Below are positions 12,443 through 61,885 of a stretch of DNA of 64,000 nt, piece by piece (the stretch's first letter is position 1; the number at the start of each line of letters is the position of its first letter). The position numbers were made by a program, and so were the translations under genes. Under the pieces are notes generated by a model that ran no database searches, was not told the origin of the DNA, and saw only the letters and a list, made by a program, of their open reading frames with translations. Source of the stretch: Thermoplasmatota archaeon (GTDB lineage Archaea; Thermoplasmatota; Penumbrarchaeia; Penumbrarchaeales; Penumbrarchaeaceae); NCBI GenBank assembly GCA_029762535.1, contig JARVGK010000012.1, positions 15,019 to 79,018 on the forward strand. The letters are read 5' to 3'.

Positions 12443-15400
12443 AAGGGATGAGGATGATAAAAGCGAGTAATGTGATCATTATTTTGCTGTCCACTGCCAT
12501 TATTCAGCTACTTGTCTTGCCAGGGCCCACCTCCCTGGGGGATCCGATCCCGGAGCAATCCTTCGGGGGCGGATCGGGGACGGCGGGGGATCCCTACGTC
12601 ATCGAGGACGTGTGGGATCTCCAGAATATGAGCAAGGATCTCAGCGCCCACTACGTCCTCGGGAACGATATCGACGCCTCCGATACGATCAATTGGAACT
12701 CGGGGGCGGGATTCGATCCGATCGGGACCAAAACGATCAATTTCAAGGGAAGCCTGGATGGAGAGGGACATTCCATCAACGGCCTGTTCATAAATCGTTC
12801 TGAAGAGGATTACGTAGGTTTGATCGATATATTATATTATGGAGGAAGGATCATCGATCTGAATATATACGATTCAAATATAACCGGCGGATCCTATGTT
12901 GGAGGTCTGTCCGGGTATAACTTAGGTTATATTGAAAATTCGTCCTTTTCAGGGAGGGTCAGTGGTAAGAACTATACTGGGATGATAACAGGATATAATA
13001 TTGGAAGTATATCAGGTTCTCATACTTACGGGATCATGATCGGAGGAAATTATGTTGGAGGTATCGTAGGTTTCCAATATTCATATTATCATTATTATTC
13101 TGGAAAGATCGAGAATACTTTTTCTGAAGCGAATGTGATAGGAAAATCGCATATCGGAGGGTTATGTGGTTCCAACACCGGACCGATCATAGATTCTTTT
13201 TATACTGGAAATGTATCTGGCGATAAAGCTGTAGGAGGTATACTTGGCAGTATAGGAGAGGACGGATACGTCTCGAATTCCTTCTATGATGTGGATAATG
13301 TACTCATCAACGGTCGGAATCATCTGACCATCGGCGGATTGTTCCATGATGAGTATGAGGATTGGTTTAGAAACAATAGGACCTTGAACATTTCACACTA
13401 TAATGATACTTTGATACCTTCCGGAGACCATTATGAGATAAATGCTGTAGATGGAATGAAAAAATTGCTCGTTTTCTCTCATATCGAAGATTATAAGTTC
13501 AGATTGTCTTCGGACATAGATCTTATTATATTCCCCGGGCTACATATCCCTTTCTTTCGCGCAGCGGAATTCAATGGGAACGGATACAAGGTATACAACC
13601 TATGTCTGGATCAGGATTTTTCATATTATACTGGACTCTTTGGATTTAATTCAGGAGGTTTTATCTCAAATTTATCCATGGTCGATGTTAATGTGAAGGG
13701 TGATAATAATGTAAGTGGTTTGATAGGTTATAATCATAAGGGTGACGTCAAGGATATTCAGGTAAATGGAATCATATCTGGTAAGAATAACATTGGAGGT
13801 GTCATCGGATCAAATTATAATACGAATGTCATAAGCTCTTCAAATTTTAATGGAACCATAAATGGGGCATTCTCTGTCGGCGGTATTGTTGGTAATAATC
13901 TTGGAAATGTTTTCAATTGTTATTCATCTGTTAATATTTATGGACGGAGAAACAATATTGGGGGAATATGCGGGTCGAATACCGGTTCGATCAAGAACTC
14001 GAACGTTTACGGGAACCTGAGTGGCGATCATAACGTCGGTGGAATAGTTGGATCGACCTCCGGTCCTGTCTCTTTTTGCAGGTCATATTCATATGCTACG
14101 GGAAACAGGTCCATAGGATGCATTGCAGGAACGAATACAGGAACTATATCGGATGTGCTATCGGAAGGATTCGCCCATGGTGATCTATCTGTCGGTGGGA
14201 TTTCGGGCAAAGCGAATGGACATATAATGAGGTCCAGATCTAAATCAAACATCGATGGTCGTTCATCTATAGGCGGAATTGCCGGAAACAGCAATCGGAT
14301 TATCATGGATTGTGCGTTCTCAGGAAAGATTGTTTCGACCGGATATTCTTCGGGTGGAATAGTTGGGGACTTGCAGGGTTCAAATTGGGATAATTCCGGG
14401 TACGTGATGGATAGTGTATCCTCTGGGGAGGTAGATGGACATATTTCTGTCGGGGGAATAGCTGGTTACAGCAGCGGAACCATCGTTGATTCATGTTCAT
14501 TGACAAATGTTAGCGGTATTCTGCATGTCGGTGGCGTTGTCGGTTTGTACAGAGGAATTGTGAATAATTGTTATTACAATATAGATAAGGTACTAATCAA
14601 CGGCATACATCAGGTTACATATTGTGGCCTGTTCGATCGCCAGTATTTGGATTGGATCCAAAGCAATAAGGTTTTGAACATTTCGGATTACGGCGAATGG
14701 TTGGTTCAAACACATGATGGCTATGATGTGTCATCCATAGATGGATTAAAATATCTTCTCGGTTTTTCCCATGAAAATAATATCCGTATAAGCATAATTG
14801 CAGATATCGATCTGTCCAATAAATATAATCTCCACATCCCATATTTTTCGGGAGAGGAATTCGATGGGAACGGTCACAAATTATTGAATTTGACAGTAGA
14901 CCAGGATTTCTCTAATTATCTCGGTTTGATAGGTTACAACGATGGCGGGACGATCAGGGACCTATCCCTCTTCCATCTGAATATTACTGGCCAAAGATAT
15001 ATTGGGGGAATTACAGGATACAACAACGGAGGAAAGATCACCAATGTATTGGTCGATGGTGCCATATGTGGAAAGGATGAACACACAGGCGGAATAGTCG
15101 GATACAATTCAGGCAACCTTCACAATTCTTCCTCAAGTGGAATGCTCTCTGGAAAAAATGTTGTAGGCGGTTTGATAGGAGAACACTGGGGTTCATTGAC
15201 GGATTCATATTCATCGATGAATATCAATGGCGAAGGGTCCATAGGAGTATTGGTCGGAAGAAATCATGGAAAGATATTCAACTCATTTTATAATATAGAT
15301 CAAGTTGAGATAAATGGAATGAATCATATTTATAGAGGGGGGATCTTCGATCGACAGTTCAACGATTGGATAACGAATGATAGATCACTTGACATCAATG

Positions 15401-18400
15401 ATTACAAAGATTCACTTCCATTTTCGAGAGGGTTTTATGAGATATCGTCCGTTCAGGGGATCAGGGATGTTTTGGGCTTTTCGTCATCTGAAGGGCTGAG
15501 GTTTAGAATGGTTTCGGATATCGATCTCAAGGATGAGTCGGGTTTACACATCCCTCATTTTTCCGCGGAGGAATTCGATGGAAATGGTTTTACAGTATCA
15601 AACTTGAATATGGAAAATAATTTTTCAGAGAAGATCGGTTTTTTTGGAGAGGTGTCCAGAGGAAATATCAGAAACGTAGTTCTAAAGGATGTAAGGATAA
15701 CCGGAACGAACCACGTTGGTTCGTTGGCGGGATCGAATAATGGCAACATATACCATTCATATTCCGAAGGTTCTATCTCGGCATGGGACAATGTGGGCCT
15801 TTTAGTGGGAAGTAATTCAGGAACGATCTTGAATTCAAGAACGGAGGGAACCTTGAATGGAAGAAGTCGTGCAGGTCTTATTGCTGGTATGAATTATGGA
15901 GCAATTTTAGATTCATCCGTTGAAGGTATATTAAAAGGAAAGGACTTTATTGGGGGATTGGCCGGTGAGAATCGAGGTTTTATAAATAGATCCTTTTCAA
16001 CAACCCAGGTCAAAGGCAGTGTAGAGTGTGTGGGGGGCATATGTGGTATGAATACAGGATCGATCTCAGAAACCTGTTCAAACGGAGAGGTAAAAGGTTC
16101 TGAGAAAGTAGGTGGTCTGGTGGGATATAATGGTATGTTCGGAAAAATTAAGGATTCATATTCAATATCATCGGTCGAGGGAAATAAGAATATTGGAGGT
16201 TTGGTAGGAGCCAATGAATTATATTCTTTAATATCGAATGTATATTCTTCAGGAAGGATTGTAGGCAATATGAATGTCGGCGCCATCACAGGATATAACG
16301 GTGGGACAATCAAGAACAGTTTCTGGGACAATGAGTCTTCCCTTCAGACCTCAAGCGCTGGAGGAATGGGTAAAAGCACATCGGAACTCATGAAAAACAA
16401 GACCTATACAAGCGCAGGATGGGATATGGATGACGTTTGGTGGATGATTGATACGGCCACGCGGCCAATATTGAGGATGGAGTGGTCTGAAAGTATATCC
16501 AATATACATCAATTACAGATGATGGCAGCTAATTTAAGCGCTGATTATGAACTCGTGAGCGATCTGGACCTATCATCGATCACAGAAGAGTCGGAAATTT
16601 GGGGAACGAATCTTTCATCTGGTAAGGGATTTTTCCCAATAGGGGATATGAATGGACCATTTTTAGGCACCTTCGATGGTTTGGATTATGAGATCAAAAA
16701 TTTATATATCAATAATGCCGATAAGGACAATGTTGGATTGTTTGGTTATATTGGGAAAGGAGGGGCCTTGACAAATGTAAAGATATCTGATGTATATGTC
16801 ATAGGTAATTCATATGTCGGTGGGATCGCCGGGTATATTTACTATGGATATTTGACTTTTTCATATTCGAAAGGATTTATTAAAGGAAATGAATATGTTG
16901 GAGGGATAACGGGCAGTCTATTGGGCACGACGATATCACACTCTTTTTCAGAAGGGAGCGTTAAAGGTCATGGTATCGTTGGAGGACTGGCGGGTTCGAA
17001 TAATGCTGCTGGAGTGATATCGAATTCCTATTCCAATGTTGTATGTGATGGTATCATACGGGTAGGAGGTATGGTAGGATATAATGCGGGTAAAATATAC
17101 AATTCATATTCATCCGGGAGAGTAACAGGAAATGAGAGGATAGGCGGTATGGTCGGATCGGATTATGGGTTGGTAATATTGAGTTTCTGGGATAATGAAA
17201 CATCAGGACAAACCAGCAGCCCGGGAGGGATTGGAAAGAATACTTCAGAGATGAAGATTAGAATAACCTTCTCAAATGCTCATTGGGACCTATCAAATAT
17301 CTGGTGTATTGCGGAAGGTTTGACATATCCACTTCTGAGGTGGCAGGATAAGGCACCTCCAATAGCCAATGCGGGAAATGATATAACCATCGACCAGGGA
17401 ACGTTATTGAAATTTAACGGAAGCGCCAGCTATGACGATCTGATGATAGCTCAATTCGAATGGACATTTAATATCGATGATTATGCGGTTGTATTATATG
17501 GTAAAGGTCCCACATATCTGTTCGATAGACCGGGGACCTTCCTGGTCACTTTGACCGTCATTGATGTTGTTGACCTTATCGATAGCGATACCATTATAGT
17601 GAATGTAAGAGAGGTCGAAGGTTACGATCCGTTCCCTCCTGTTGCTAATGCGGGAAATGATATTATTATTGTCAATGGAAGTAAGGTTACTTTTGACGGC
17701 AGTGCATCTTATGATAATATTGGTATCGTCAATTATACCTGGACCTTATACGACAATAAAACGATCTTCCTTTATGGTGTGAACCCAACGTATATTTTCA
17801 ACTTTGTTGGATCATATTGTGTTACATTGAATGTAAGTGATGCTTGGGGGTCTTGGAGTGTCGATATGATCAATGTGACCGTCATTGAATTGCCATATGT
17901 CGATGAAACGTCTCCCATCTGCATAGCAGGATCTGATGTGGAGATTAATGAAAGAGAGAGAGTCTATTTCGATGGAAGAGGAAGCCACGATAACGTCGGG
18001 ATCGCAAGCTATACCTGGACCTTCTTCGACGGGATCGAGGACGTGGTCCTTCAAGGGAGCACTCCCTCCCACATATTCACCGTTCCCGGAAGATACACCA
18101 TAACTCTCACCGTCATGGACGAGGCGGGGAACTCCGGATCCGACACGATGACCGTGTCGGTTCGGGACATAACCCCTCCCATCGCGAACGCCGGGGAAGA
18201 TCTCGTAATTGATGAGGGATCCCCTGTCCAGTTCGACGGAAGCGAGAGCTCCGACAACGTGATGATAGTGAACTACACATGGACCGTGATATCGGGGTCC
18301 CGAAGGACCTCCCTCTATGGCGTGGACCCTGTCCACGTCTTCGGGGATCCGGGAGTGTACGTCGTGACATTGGAGGTCCTTGACGGGGCAGGTCTCACCG

Positions 18401-58036: not shown

Positions 58037-58774
58037 TCACACCAAATTCTCCTTCACCTTCCATCTGGAATTGCCTTCTCCTTTCTCGGGACGGGAATAG
58101 TCCAGAGGAATGAACGCACCTTTGACCGATCCGAGGAGAACGTCTGTACCGGGCAATTCCAGGGTGTCAAGTAACCACCCTATCCTTTTCATCGCAGGGA
58201 GGTTTCCCGACCTTTTTGCATATTCGGACAACTTCGTTGACGATATGGTATTTTTGTCCTCCTTGATCATGAAGAAGATCTCTTCAAGAGATATCCGTTT
58301 CAGAAGGATACTGTCCAATAGGCATTTTTCGGGATCGGCCATGAAGACATCGAACACTGATACCTTTTCCTTCGTATATCCGAAAAGGTACCGGACCGGG
58401 ATCGTGGAGAATGATATCCTCATGTTCATGAACTCCATGTTCTTCGAGTGTCTGGTCGCTGTGGTCAGAACGGAGATCTCATTTGGTATCTGATCGGTCA
58501 AACCATGATGATGGAGTGCATACCACAAGGATATATAGCTAGGCCAGGCGATCCTGGTTGCTATTATGAGAGGATCGTCATGGAGAGTGAACCTGTTCCT
58601 CTGGATCCTTTTCACGATCCCCCTCTTGACCAATCTCCCGATCATGACCTTGCAGTAGGATGGATCCTTCTTGGTTAGAGCACAAAGATCGTCGAGTGTG
58701 AAGACGGGATAGGTCTTCAGTCTCTCGATGAGCATGTACGTGTTGATATTCATCGATGGCTCAGTACCATACAA
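58037..58774 (-). CDS. AbiEi-type antitoxin/transcriptional regulator
   Basis: N-terminal wHTH, PSYISLWYALHHHGLTDQIP, ADPEKCLLD; lies directly upstream of AbiEii. Confidence 0.88.
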   Translation of the reverse strand: MYGTEPSMNINTYMLIERLKTYPVFTLDDLCALTKKDPSYCKVMIGRLVKRGIVKRIQRNRFTLHDDPLIIATRIAWPSYISLWYALHHHGLTDQIPNEISVLTTATRHSKNMEFMNMRISFSTIPVRYLFGYTKEKVSVFDVFMADPEKCLLDSILLKRISLEEIFFMIKEDKNTISSTKLSEYAKRSGNLPAMKRIGWLLDTLELPGTDVLLGSVKGAFIPLDYSRPEKGEGNSRWKVKENLV

Positions 58775-58792
58775 GTATATTTAACTAACGAT

Positions 58793-58812
58793 GGTAATCA
58801 TTTATGATTACC
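58793..58812. promoter_or_regulatory. Inverted-repeat operator upstream of the AbiE operon
   Basis: Perfect 9-bp dyad GGTAATCAT-TT-ATGATTACC just upstream of abiEi. Confidence 0.6.
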
Positions 58813-59013
58813 TAAGTTTTGTAAATATACATCAGAGTTGTCGACAATATATCGACGACTGGATTATCTTCATTTCCATCCTTCTTCGGCTCATCCTGTA
58901 TCCTCCGTGAAGGATCGCATTGATCATCTTCGATGTGAAGTCCGGATCCTCAAGGGATCGGACCAGGTTTCAGTCGAGATGGGGTAGGGAGTGGTCGGAT
59001 TGATGTTTTTCCA

Positions 59014-59276
59014 AGCAGACTCGGCAGGTCGGGATGAAGAGGCGAGAGATATGGAGTGTAGAGACGGAAGATGGAGTGCGCAGTCCCGGTGGGTGGAAAA
59101 CTGCTGGCGCTACGCGTTGGTATATAAAGAACTGCCGATCACTGCGCGGGGATCGATGCGCAGTGCCGGCATATGCCACCTCTGCGCAATGGGATATTTT
59201 TCCTTTGTCTGGCTATGGAGTGAGAGGAGGGGGTCCCGTGCGCAAAACTCGGCAGGTAACTGCCGCCATTGCGCGG
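59014..59276. repeat. Cluster of GCGCA-N4/5-CGGCA units arranged as inverted dyads
   Basis: About 8 degenerate copies in both orientations, e.g. GCGCAAAACTCGGCAG-GTAA-CTGCCGCCATTGCGC (59240-59274). Confidence 0.55.
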
Positions 59277-59384
59277 TTTGGACGATCCTCTCGTTACTAA
59301 CGTGATCAACGAATATCGAGTAGTGATCCTGGAAAGTACAAGGATATATCGTGAGAGGACCAAAACGATCCGATCGGAATATGT

Positions 59385-59805
59385 TCATCCATTGACCGGA
59401 TCCGGGAACATGTGCACAAGATCACTCGTTGAATAGATAGCGACAACATCCTGATCACGCAGTTTCGAATCATTTGTCCATAGCCCGGCACCGATCAGGA
59501 TCGCCGCGGCGAGATAAGGATCGTCCTTGACATCCGGGGAGAACTCCTTCACCTGTTCCATCTCCCGGATTATCTCTTCCATTGGAATGGTCTCGATCCT
59601 TTCGGTGTATATCGATAGTACCTCATCGAACTCCATCTGCGATCTGTGGGTCTTTTTCAGGATGAGATCGCGGTACTTCTCGAACTCTTCGAAGATGAAC
59701 TCGGGTGCGTAAAGGTGGAGCCTTTCGTTCAGGATGAGCCTTGATGTCTCACCTTTCCTGATGAGGGCGGAGAACATAAACGTTCGCGTCCACGATGAGG
59801 TCCAT
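59385..59805 (-). pseudogene. PIN-domain (VapC-like) toxin with a +1 frameshift after codon 9
   Basis: ATG at 59805 gives MDLIVDANV, then an extra T (GTT T ATG) shifts into MFSALIRKG...DDPYLAAA...LWTNDSKL. Confidence 0.8.
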
Positions 59806-60032
59806 CAGGTGCTCTCCGTGTATCTCTTGCGGAGGGCCTTGTTGACCTTCCTGCCCAGTTCGAGGGCGTCCTCGTCGGTCATCTCGCTGTCGGATGCGAA
59901 CTTTTCCAGGACCTTGAGGTCCCTGACCTTGTCCCTGAAGGCCATGCGGGCCACTTCCGACCAGTTGACCCAGGGATGGGAGTCCATTTCCTTCTTCAGT
60001 TCCTTTGGAACAGAAAGGGTCATATTGACCAT
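59805..60032 (-). CDS. RHH-type antitoxin (VapB-like)
   Basis: MVNMTLSVPKELKKEMDSHPWVNWSEVAR; AGGTGA RBS; TGATG overlap with the PIN gene. Confidence 0.85.
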   Translation of the reverse strand: MVNMTLSVPKELKKEMDSHPWVNWSEVARMAFRDKVRDLKVLEKFASDSEMTDEDALELGRKVNKALRKRYTEST

Positions 60033-60046
60033 ATCGTCACCTATTT

Positions 60047-60071
60047 GATGTGTATGCACATCTTTATACTT
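60047..60071 (-). promoter_or_regulatory. TA promoter with operator dyad
   Basis: GATGTG-TATG-CACATC dyad adjacent to minus-strand AAGTATAAAG. Confidence 0.6.
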
Positions 60072-60214
60072 ATGTTCTCTCCTTATTCATTTTCGAAGAT
60101 CACAGGGATCGATCCCCCGGTTCTTGTTGAGGATCAGATCCAGAAGGAGGATCGGTTTATAGGGGGCTTTCTCGACGGTGTATCTGCTGGGGTTGCGATC
60201 CACGCGAATTTCCT

Positions 60215-60691
60215 CTATTTTCCGCAAAGGTCCGTCATATCAGAATGGAAGATGTCCCATTTTCTCATCTCTTCGATCACCCTCACGGCATATTCTCTAT
60301 CCCATTCCAGGACCTCGGCGATCTGTTCGAGATCCGCCTTTCCTTCAGGGAATCTCGATAGCACCGCGGTCATTCCCGCAAACAGGTCAGCTTCTTTCTC
60401 GAACCTCTTGATGAGTGGTGATCGAACGCCGTACTCCTCTTCAAGATCGAGCAATCTAAGGTAAAATTTGAGAATCCATCTCCACGGATCCTTCTGGGAC
60501 CTCACCTCGGATTCTATGATGTTCCAGTCCAACAGTCTATTTGCCAATCTCTCCATATCCGACAGGTCCTCCGGACGGTCTGTTATCCCTTTGAGCAAAA
60601 AGATATCCTCTCTGGAGATGACGTGGATATTGATATCTTCGAATTCGGGTATCCGGGTTGCTCTTTTGACCATCCCTTCGGATAATGAAAG
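60215..60691 (-). pseudogene. C-terminal half of a DUF6036-like nucleotidyltransferase, truncated by the cassette insertion
   Basis: LSLSEGMVKRA...SREDIFLLKGITDRPEDLSDM...LDWNII; N-terminal NTase motifs missing; the frame continues upstream as EICRG on the far side of the insertion (61601-61615). Confidence 0.65.
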
Positions 60692-60741
60692 TTGTGTGAA
60701 ATTATTGACCATCTATCTGTGCCTTTTCGAAAAACAAACGA

Positions 60742-61146
60742 TCATATCAAAATATCCCATGCATCATTAGGTGATATGATATTCTTCAGTTTTAAGTTGA
60801 GAAATTCCTTATCGCTTGTCAAGAGATAATCGATTTCATCTAACATTCCACATGCCAATACCGGTGAATCTTTTAAACTGATCAATTCTTTTGCTACAGG
60901 CAAATTGTGGATGTATCTGTCTTTAGTTATTATGCTACAATGCGATATGAATATTTCAAGGTCCATCAATGCATTCTCTCTTTTTGTTCCAGATAGTTTC
61001 AATTGAAGATTTCGTTTAAGTTCTTCAATAATAAAATCAGATAAGATAACGTTATGTTTTTCAATTAATAAATGAAGAATGTCATGTACTCTACCTTCAT
61101 GTGCGATAGCAGAGTAGAGTGTCGAAGTGTCTACCAGTATCTTCAT
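60742..61146 (-). CDS. PIN-domain toxin (VapC-like)
   Basis: MKILVDTSTLYSA, EELKR, KDSPVL, LLTSDKEF. Confidence 0.9.
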   Translation of the reverse strand: MKILVDTSTLYSAIAHEGRVHDILHLLIEKHNVILSDFIIEELKRNLQLKLSGTKRENALMDLEIFISHCSIITKDRYIHNLPVAKELISLKDSPVLACGMLDEIDYLLTSDKEFLNLKLKNIISPNDAWDILI

Positions 61147-61400
61147 TCGTTATCTCCGAACATCTCTTGAAATAACTTTTCTCTAATCTCTTTTCCACCT
61201 TCCAGGAGATCCTTTTCGGAAATACCTTCTTCATTCATGATCCGACCAAGACGTTTGAATGCATCAAACATTTCTGCTTTTCGAACTGCATCACGAATAT
61301 ATTCAGAACGTGAGGGATACTCACCCTTCGTCACGTAATTATCTATTCGTTTGAGTTCCTCTTGGGGAAGGCGTATCTGCACGGAGACCATTTTAGCCAT
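61143..61400 (-). CDS. RHH (CopG-like) antitoxin
   Basis: VSVQIRLP..ELKRID..V.KGEYPSRSEYIRDAVR; ATGA overlap with the PIN gene. Confidence 0.9.
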   Translation of the reverse strand: MAKMVSVQIRLPQEELKRIDNYVTKGEYPSRSEYIRDAVRKAEMFDAFKRLGRIMNEEGISEKDLLEGGKEIREKLFQEMFGDNE

Positions 61401-61404
61401 GAAC

Positions 61405-61433
61405 TGTGATTGTATTCAATCACATATATACTT
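61405..61433 (-). promoter_or_regulatory. TA promoter with a perfect operator dyad
   Basis: TGTGATTG-TATT-CAATCACA (61405-61424) and TATATA about 25-30 nt upstream of the ATG (leaderless spacing). Confidence 0.7.
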
Positions 61434-61516
61434 TCCGCATTGTTATGTGGGATAACAAAAGAAATGGTCGACCACTCTTCGTCGCCTTCGGCTCCGTTCC
61501 CTCCCTGTGGTCGGGT

Positions 61517-61602
61517 CACATAACCCGCGGTTATGCGGTTCGCAAACGGAGTTTGCTCGAGCCAAATTCACCTTCGGTGAACTTCGCATACCCGCGTCCG
61601 TC
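61517..61602 (+). other. attC-like recombination site
   Basis: R''-like CACATAAC; arms CGCGGTTATGCG / CGCATACCCGCG; internal hairpins GCAAAC-GGA-GTTTGC and TTCACC-TTC-GGTGAA; ends CCG|T. Confidence 0.7.
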
Positions 61603-61885
61603 CCCGGCAGATCTCCGATTATGGGATCCCCTACTGGGTATAAGTATTGATCAAGGACGAGGCATTTGCTCATTAATCCAGATTAGTTCTATGCCATCCA
61701 AGAGCTGATGGATGGGGGTACTTGGAGGAGTTATCCGGCAGGATCATGTCCCGATCGTATAGATGGTCAGGACATTATCGGGATCCTCTGGGGATCAAAT
61801 GAGATCCCTCTCGATATTTGTATGTAAGGAGAGGGAGGTCGATACATGGTGAATGATCTGGACTTTAACTGATTCTTACTTTGGA

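Follow-up and report, generated by a model that had tools for sequence, protein, structure and literature searches.

Within the 64-kb stretch of DNA that was analyzed (hereafter, the window), positions 60692 to 61600 of the forward strand hold an integron-type gene cassette of 909 bp, running from TTGTGTG to GCGTCCG. Its GC content is 0.389, against 0.46 to 0.48 in the flanks and a mean of 0.519 over the window, so the AT-rich unit of this length that a preliminary description had begun at 60691 was borne out. The contig belongs to an archaeal genome (referred to here as G000), as indicated by an archaeal RNase P RNA scoring 182 bits in the assembly; mcrA was not found in the genome. Between 57 and 63 kb, the window also forms a lower-GC island of toxin-antitoxin (TA) and defense-type genes located on one strand. 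A tRNA-targeted island was considered and set aside, there being no tRNA genes in the window.

The cassette encodes an RHH and a PIN protein and neither a transposase nor any nuclease other than PIN. Both genes are inverted, on the minus strand: an 85-residue RHH antitoxin (61143 to 61400; Pfam RHH_1, 31.5 bits against a cutoff of 20.5) followed by a 134-residue PIN-domain toxin (60742 to 61146). Five Pfam PIN families match the toxin, the best score of 21.2 bits being slightly under the 23.6 cutoff, and four conserved acidic residues can be read directly in its translation. A 4-bp overlap joins the two genes, an arrangement seen in VapBC-type pairs, and the gene order, the overlap, the two domains, and the acidic residues together are those of a type II VapBC-like TA module, as judged at the sequence level. 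The inverted RHH/PIN pair of the preliminary description is therefore upheld. Compared with the copy in a related genome described below, the dN/dS ratios are 0.19 for RHH and 0.23 for PIN, indicating purifying selection on both genes between the two copies; since these values are low, the module probably retains its function. A TATA-like element, AAAGTATATAT, lies upstream of the RHH start codon at 61424 to 61434 (minus strand), and a 20-bp palindrome, TGTGATTG-N4-CAATCACA, abuts the ATG at 61405 to 61424. In the related copy, conservation reaches 97% over the 34 nt immediately preceding the ATG. Together, these elements (61405 to 61434, minus strand) may constitute an archaeal promoter with an operator, yielding a nearly leaderless transcript. 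The earlier claim that the pair has its own promoter thus stands as a prediction read from the DNA, and we infer both the promoter and the TA activity of the cassette.

The last 140 bp of the cassette are G+C-rich, with a folding z-score of -3.3 to -4.4 relative to shuffled controls, and the attC-like hairpin previously noticed there was confirmed as an attC-type core at 61516 to 61600 (plus strand). The core scored 82.3 bits (E value of 6.5e-19 over the whole genome) with R2, one of two lineage-specific models built in this analysis, one of which includes the window sequence; R2 is the shorter core model and is broader than the other, R1. Rfam, searched from 58 to 64 kb at a permissive threshold, gave no match in the hairpin region (61440 to 61600). 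The core includes the R'' box CACATAAC at 61517 to 61524 and ends in CCG at the crossover point. It contains the paired stems CGCGG/CCGCG and TATGCG/CGCATA and a three-way junction with two small hairpins. According to the predicted fold, a 3-nt bulge follows AAC and two of the stems are separated by a 1x1 mismatch; these may be counterparts of the unpaired central spacer and extrahelical bases of attC sites. In this lineage, a conserved GC-rich leader of the CTC-N-TCGTCGCYTCGGCTCC type precedes the core; in the window it occupies 61464 to 61515 (plus strand), where it falls within the coverage of R1 and could be aligned with three array repeats of G004, a genome of a different genus in the same family. 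Across 13 aligned attC sites from four genomes, compensatory changes occur in 10 of the 17 predicted pairs, and the AAC and GTT motifs are nearly invariant.

In the native window sequence, the R box is unable to pair in the DNA fold. In-silico circularization of the unit from 60692 to 61600 gives the end CCG| with a reconstituted GTTGTGTG, and the resulting strand adopts a fold in which an R-box stem is accompanied by a 3-nt bulge, two short stems, and the three-way junction. The R-box stem forms only in the circularized strand, in agreement with the earlier claim that circularization rebuilds a full attC. The circularized end, G plus TTGTGTGA, is complementary to R'' at 8/9 positions in the window and at 9/9 in the G004 copy, a single A-to-G difference separating the window from G004. 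This relationship is general: G plus the first 8 nt of each cassette is the reverse complement of that cassette's own R''. In the array of the window's own genome, the match is 9/9 in five cassettes and 8/9 in one; it is 9/9 in both testable units of G004 and in one unit of G005, compared with only 4 to 6 of 9 in controls consisting of R' boxes merely downstream of an array repeat. Complementarity between a unit's own end and its R'' is what excision as a circle and reinsertion at G|TT would predict. The unit therefore combines open reading frames, an imperfect inverted repeat with AAC/GTT, and the signature of circular permutation, the features by which a cassette is defined.

The RHH-PIN cassette is also present in a second context. 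In G004, the segment C1:35691-36607 matches 60691 to 61601 of the window at 88% identity with identical ends, and these are exactly the cassette limits first proposed. There, the RHH-PIN unit is the second cassette of an array adjoining a tyrosine recombinase gene. The recombinase lies on the opposite strand and is followed by a first TA-like unit, the RHH-PIN unit, and a small open reading frame, each with a repeat behind it, and then by a methyltransferase. All unit junctions in this array read CCG|TTA..., including CCG|TTATG. The recurrence of the cassette with unchanged ends indicates that it is mobile as a unit and fixes its identity and boundaries. A DNA search of the window's own genome with the cassette recovered only the unit itself. 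The cassette is 88 to 89% identical to the G004 copy, whereas the syntenic flanks of the integrons in the two genomes are mostly 65 to 78% identical, with one 1.3-kb block at 91%. This difference suggests that the platform was inherited vertically and that the cassette was exchanged more recently.

The preliminary description had called for a search of the genome for further attC copies and a recombinase, and both were found. The R1 covariance model detected seven attC sites in the 2.96-Mb assembly, six of them co-oriented on contig C25 and the seventh, that of the window, on contig C6; R2 recovered the same seven plus one weak match on C25. The window site is the only attC outside the C25 array in both genome scans. 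Neither the 64-kb window nor the rest of contig C6 contains a second R2 match, and in the window no weak one was found either, so the locus is a solitary attC that has neither an integrase nor a further att site in its vicinity, as in the elements termed SALINs. A gene on contig C5 that is 85% identical to the antitoxin gene of the first G004 cassette was examined as a possible second lone cassette and rejected, as it has no attC.

On C25, an intact tyrosine recombinase of 266 residues, 57% identical to that of G004, lies on the opposite strand at the head of a row made up of the conserved attI followed by six cassettes. The recombinase start codon is 130 nt away from the beginning of the first cassette, G|TTAAGTCC, and this beginning agrees exactly with the R'' of the cassette's own repeat. 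To the left of the crossover, the sequence ...CGAAAGT...TTCGC(T/A)TAATAGGAG|TTA is retained at nine loci in eight genomes, which identifies it by conservation and position as the attI. The adjacent divergent tyrosine recombinase, the attI, and the G|TT insertion point make up an integron platform. Five loci, distributed over four genomes (G000 C25, G004 C1, G013 C3 and C25, and G020 C11), have the recombinase next to the array in divergent orientation, so the array, attI, and recombinase exist as a linked set. In total, 8 of the 24 family genomes carry the recombinase; R1 attC matches are present in 8/8 genomes with it versus 3/16 genomes without it. Its patchy distribution in the family argues against a housekeeping Xer role. 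The C25 protein is the only full-length PF00589 protein in the assembly, which is 93% complete and contains a second, fragmentary tyrosine recombinase on contig C53.

To the left of the cassette, positions 60215 to 60691 (minus strand) comprise the C-terminal 150 codons of a DUF6036-type nucleotidyltransferase-like gene (Pfam DUF6036, E value of 0.005, profile positions 69 to 138 only). The annotated open reading frame of 165 residues takes its ATG (60712) and seven codons from the cassette. The fragment is 74% identical to residues 99 to 248 of P0002 and 69% identical to residues 106 to 255 of P0003, which are full-length homologs of 248 and 257 residues. Across the junction, the uninterrupted homologs read ...FVTEICRG|LSLSRGM... 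and ...FVIDICRG|LSLSEGM..., and when the unit is deleted in silico the window reads EICRG|LSLSEGM. The unit-deleted DNA also aligns to an intact homologous locus (L029) by gapless blastn across the junction, starting in 61601 to 61617. The claim that deletion rejoins the frame of the target gene therefore holds at both the protein and the DNA level, including the C-x-G-type segment expected in homologs (EICRG and DICRG precede LSLSRGM and LSLSEGM), but it holds over a short distance only, as just 17 nt remain on the right. This remnant (61601 to 61617, minus strand) was recognized by blastn to L029 and encodes codons S-E-I-C-R-G, corresponding to TEICRG and DICRG in the homologs; in the rejoined window frame, a stop codon occurs six codons upstream of the junction. 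The two cassette junctions share only GT and have no longer target duplication, as originally described.

A second breakpoint lies at 61617/61618, beyond which other DNA (61618 to 61885) replaces the N-terminal 93 codons of the target and the HTH partner gene that precedes its homologs. No match to the 93 N-terminal residues or to the HTH partner was obtained by tblastn of the assembly. The homologous loci share no further synteny with the window flanks, and there is no attC at the intact ones. The history of the locus was clarified by public metagenome contigs. Contigs of two sediment studies (X8, and a minor contig in X4), ∼97% identical to the window sequence, span the cassette with both junctions; in them, each side of the cassette carries one half of the gene, and the sequence continues in frame at 61617 with QGLLVDIFVT and RGFIVDIFVT before EICRG. 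The 61617/61618 version of the window is bridged by contigs of two further studies, X2 and X11, and the breakpoint is therefore real rather than an assembly error. Taken together, the two forms indicate that the gene was still intact when the cassette inserted, in a common ancestor, and that its upstream half was lost later in the window's lineage. The insertion is common to populations in several studies at ∼97% identity, and the ancestor in which it occurred possibly had a different enzyme complement. Contigs of four public runs yielded neither a joint that skips the cassette nor a circle junction, although contigs cannot prove absence. No empty allele of the same species was found, and the uninterrupted genes are 69 to 74% identical homologs rather than orthologous empty sites.

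The left half of the insertion target, CTTCGGATAATGAAAG| (60676 to 60691, plus strand, with the crossover between 60691 and 60692), resembles an attI. The target CTTCGGATAATGAAAG|T aligns in register with the attI CTTCGCTTAATAGGAG|T, sharing TTCG, TAAT, and AG|T, and matches the attI of its own genome at 10/16 positions, the commonest attI at 11/16, and that of G014 at 12/16. Among all positions of the genome, only a fraction of 2e-4 equals this match to the own attI, and only 2.6e-5 equals that to the common attI. The reconstructed target, AAAG|TCC, conforms to neither GTT nor the GWT motif of bacterial secondary sites. This likeness, noticed after the fact, is suggestive of an attI look-alike rather than an arbitrary site, and an attC x pseudo-attI event appears to fit better than insertion at an arbitrary position. 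The site had been described as a non-att chromosomal position, which is correct in that it lies outside the array but overlooks its resemblance to the attI core.

The recombinase of the array differs from canonical integron integrases. The C25 protein has 30 residues where VchIntIA (2a3v) has 74, so that ∼44 residues, including the IntI-specific additional domain around patch III, are missing. Its best PDB match is the archaeal XerA 4a8e, aligned end to end, and the G004 ortholog reaches 161 bits in two stretches against the NCBIfam integron-integrase model TIGR02249, whose cutoff is 265. The array recombinases of the lineage range from 266 to 273 residues. Among named organisms, a scan of the genome collection with the recombinase retrieved distant relatives only, in Nanoarchaeia-labelled MAGs (50 to 53%), Methanosarcinales (∼41%), Woesearchaeota, and Acidobacteriota. 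Bacterial IntI requires the IntI-specific domain for attC recombination, and because this domain is missing here, a role of the recombinase in inserting the cassette is argued from linkage and co-occurrence. An IntI-type integrase acting in trans had been proposed; an integron-type recombinase is indeed encoded elsewhere in the genome, on C25, but it is Xer-like and lacks the IntI domain. The statement that the system works like an integron is well supported, whereas the statement that it is a canonical integron is not.

These differences bear on whether another enzyme inserted the cassette, such as a canonical IntI from a transient element or donor, or a host Xer-type recombinase acting at a dif-like site. 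The lack of the domain that bacterial IntI requires would favor such a view, as would the incompleteness of the assembly, the fragmentary C53 recombinase, and the apparent exchange of this cassette type between genera. Yet the assembly yielded no canonical IntI; at five loci in four genomes, arrays and a conserved attI accompany the short recombinase, which also co-occurs with attC across the family; and the target mimics the attI of the array itself, so we regard insertion by a different enzyme as unlikely. Still less probable, in our judgment, is that an array decayed at this locus until a CALIN with one attC was left, the nucleotidyltransferase fragment being old cargo and at no time a chromosomal gene that was interrupted. 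The surrounding low-GC island of TA and defense-type genes might be read in this way, as might the fragmentary state of the target gene in the window genome, but intact homologs span the junction at loci lacking attC, contigs of studies X4 and X8 place both gene halves directly beside the cassette, and the window has no second attC even among weak matches.

The unit could finally be imagined as a small transposon-like or homing element that merely resembles a cassette and moved by itself, an explanation to which we give hardly any credence. Its small size, AT richness, addiction module, and imperfectly complementary ends would suit such an element. It nevertheless encodes only RHH and PIN proteins and no transposase, there is no target duplication past the shared GT, and both of its ends fall precisely on attC crossover points of an array.

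We therefore consider it very likely that 60692 to 61600 is a genuine integron-type cassette, composed of an inverted, presumably self-promoted RHH-PIN operon followed by an attC hairpin, and that this lone attC cassette was placed outside an array by an integron-type recombinase acting from elsewhere in the genome. The central proposal of the preliminary description, movement by an integron-type enzyme in trans, is thus sustained by the array copy in G004, the C25 platform, the solitary attC, the uninterrupted homologs, and the X4 and X8 contigs. In the route we propose, the cassette would have left an array of this archaeal family as an excised circle, and the array's own tyrosine recombinase (that of C25 here) would have inserted it by single-strand exchange at G|T into a chromosomal mimic of the attI left half, TTCG-N2-TAAT-N3-AG|T, within the DUF6036-type gene. 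A rearrangement 17 nt to the right would later have removed the N-terminal half of the target in the window's lineage. We infer the acting enzyme and the circular intermediate. With TCCCC contributed by the target in place of TTRNNN, the R box remains unpaired, and the cassette is probably locked in place.

The preliminary description had further envisaged an attC-driven route that seeds TA modules around the genome. This extension would rest on one case: the assembly contains a single off-array attC, and RHH-PIN loci homologous to that of the cassette (67 to 72% nucleotide identity) in six other relatives lack attC.

The locus can be read as a natural record that archaeal cassettes move as units, cross genera, and can land in ordinary genes, and that the cassette system has been active in nature outside its home locus. 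In this case, the landing destroyed one gene and fixed a TA pair in the chromosome. The recognition rule indicated by the locus is an attC paired with an attI-like TTCG-N2-TAAT-N3-AG|T. A recombinase that would act without a domain considered essential in bacterial IntI also bears on the origin of integron integrases from Xer-type enzymes. That the archaeal family at large runs a working integron-like system is a proposal to which we assign even chances. In it, a short Xer-type recombinase lacking the IntI domain would recognize a sequence-conserved attC containing the three-way junction, together with an attI, TTCGC(T/A)TAATAGGAG|TT, and would also act on chromosomal attI look-alikes; this would be an ancestral or independently evolved form of the integron, with the window as its first natural off-platform product, known along with its donor form and its interrupted target.

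To our knowledge, experimental proof of off-platform cassette capture is recent and confined to bacteria, and archaeal integrons are known from sequence surveys only. One parallel is the secondary-site recombination by IntI1 reportedly described by Francia in 1993 and Recchia in 1994, in which the hybrid site is said to be a poor substrate and the cassette is locked in; IntI1, however, has the extra domain, unlike the C25 recombinase. Another is provided by Acinetobacter plasmids, whose small pdif modules, TA pairs among them, are mobilized by a Xer-type enzyme, but these are bounded by double-stranded XerC/XerD sites rather than by a folded hairpin with G|TT exchange.

SALINs and the insertion of cassettes by attC x attG recombination are established in bacteria (Loot et al., Nat Microbiol 2024; preprint 10.1101/2022.09.11.507474), where the secondary-site motif is 5'-GWT-3' with cleavage after G (10.1101/2022.09.11.507474). 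The window resembles SALINs in having a single attC cassette far from any integrase or att site, inserted into an ordinary gene by crossover beside a G while the platform lies in another part of the genome; it differs in its archaeal host, in G|TC in place of 5'-GWT-3', in the extended likeness to attI, and in a recombinase without the IntI domain. Arrays of cassettes bearing attC hairpins occur in archaeal MAGs (Ghaly et al., Sci Adv 2022, PMC9668308), and the archaeal IntIs described there have the IntI-specific additional domain, with arrays, CALINs, and In0 elements reported (PMC9668308). The system analyzed here shares with them the arrays, the common TA cargo, the attI beside the integrase, and the canonical insertion point, but its recombinase, of 266 to 273 residues, lacks the domain, and one cassette lies alone off the platform, in a target whose interruption is demonstrable. 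In the sedentary chromosomal integrons of Vibrio, TA cassettes are known to carry promoters of their own (PMC11023631). Lineage-conserved attC repeats and apparently self-promoted TA cassettes are features in common with those integrons, and the G000/G004 platform has one flank that is syntenic between genera; the arrays are far smaller (six cassettes in G000), the attC has a conserved three-way junction, and the recombinase is of another type. Relative to these systems, what is new is an off-platform archaeal cassette for which the form in the array, the gene it interrupted, and the two subsequent states of the locus are all documented, as well as an attI-like insertion site, a linked recombinase without the IntI domain, and an attC with a conserved three-way junction.

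The contigs of X4, a public sediment metagenome run, were compared with the window around the cassette (60692-61600), which carries an RHH-PIN toxin-antitoxin (TA) pair and an attC. The dominant X4 contig, at a depth of 35, tracks the window across the TA genes and diverges at 61462, immediately ahead of the attC leader (61464-61515). This contig could represent a variant whose attC differs or has been lost. On the right side of the cassette, a second breakpoint is located at 61617/61618, 17 nt away. The DNA beyond it (61618-61885) begins with ATTATGGGATCCCC and is unique in the genome. Because motifs of the GGGATCCCC type recur in this genome, the cut at 61617/61618 may have been made by another recombination system.

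Further TA and defence-type genes occupy the neighbourhood at 58037-60230, all on the same strand, including an AbiEi-like protein (58037-58774) and a PIN_2 toxin paired with an 84-aa protein (59385-60059). A 70-bp stretch at 60117-60186 is 88% identical to another contig of the assembly, C87. Another island may be present at 13000-18000, a 5-kb block with 38-43% G+C and strong positive GC skew within surroundings of 50-60% G+C. The end of the window's contig, C6 (63500-64000), contains palindromes built of G/C runs (GGGATCCCCCCCCGAGGGGGGATC...). Contigs C31, C25, and C2 carry repeats of these palindromes at 75-84%, and the palindromes probably account for the contig ending at this place.

In the genome's own array (C25:77842-96148), applying the end-complementarity rule, under which G plus a cassette's first 8 nt is complementary to R'' of its own attC, implies two very large cassettes, of about 7.8 and 8 kb, as well as a first cassette coding for a 1365-aa protein. 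One gene just past the last attC (C25:70761-72065) is 90.8% identical to its counterpart in another genus (L015:6245-7558), compared with 66-75% for the neighbouring genes. This gene is possibly an old cassette, or else a different transferred segment.

In a further relative, locus L119 (G005:C73:29500-36000, oriented minus) contains a second attI-like site, TTCGATTAATAGGAG/TTAAATGA (slash, junction), with the junction at ∼2459. It is accompanied by one cassette (168-aa ORF) and one attC, with the recombinase on a different contig, and is either an orphaned attI or part of a second, integrase-less platform. In G004, the relative that holds the 88% identical cassette, the attI junction is masked by N runs in the interval between the recombinase and the first cassette (L003:640-739). 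N runs are also present in L031, on contig C5 of the window's own assembly, and at both loci they adjoin similar short sequences (CTATC...GTG.TGC).

Outside the archaea, Terriglobia MAGs (loci L047-L086) encode a recombinase ∼40% identical to the 266-aa Xer-like tyrosine recombinase of C25. Identical copies of the Terriglobia enzyme are found at dozens of positions within single acidobacterial chromosomes, which suggests a high-copy mobile element whose enzyme is related to the C25 recombinase.
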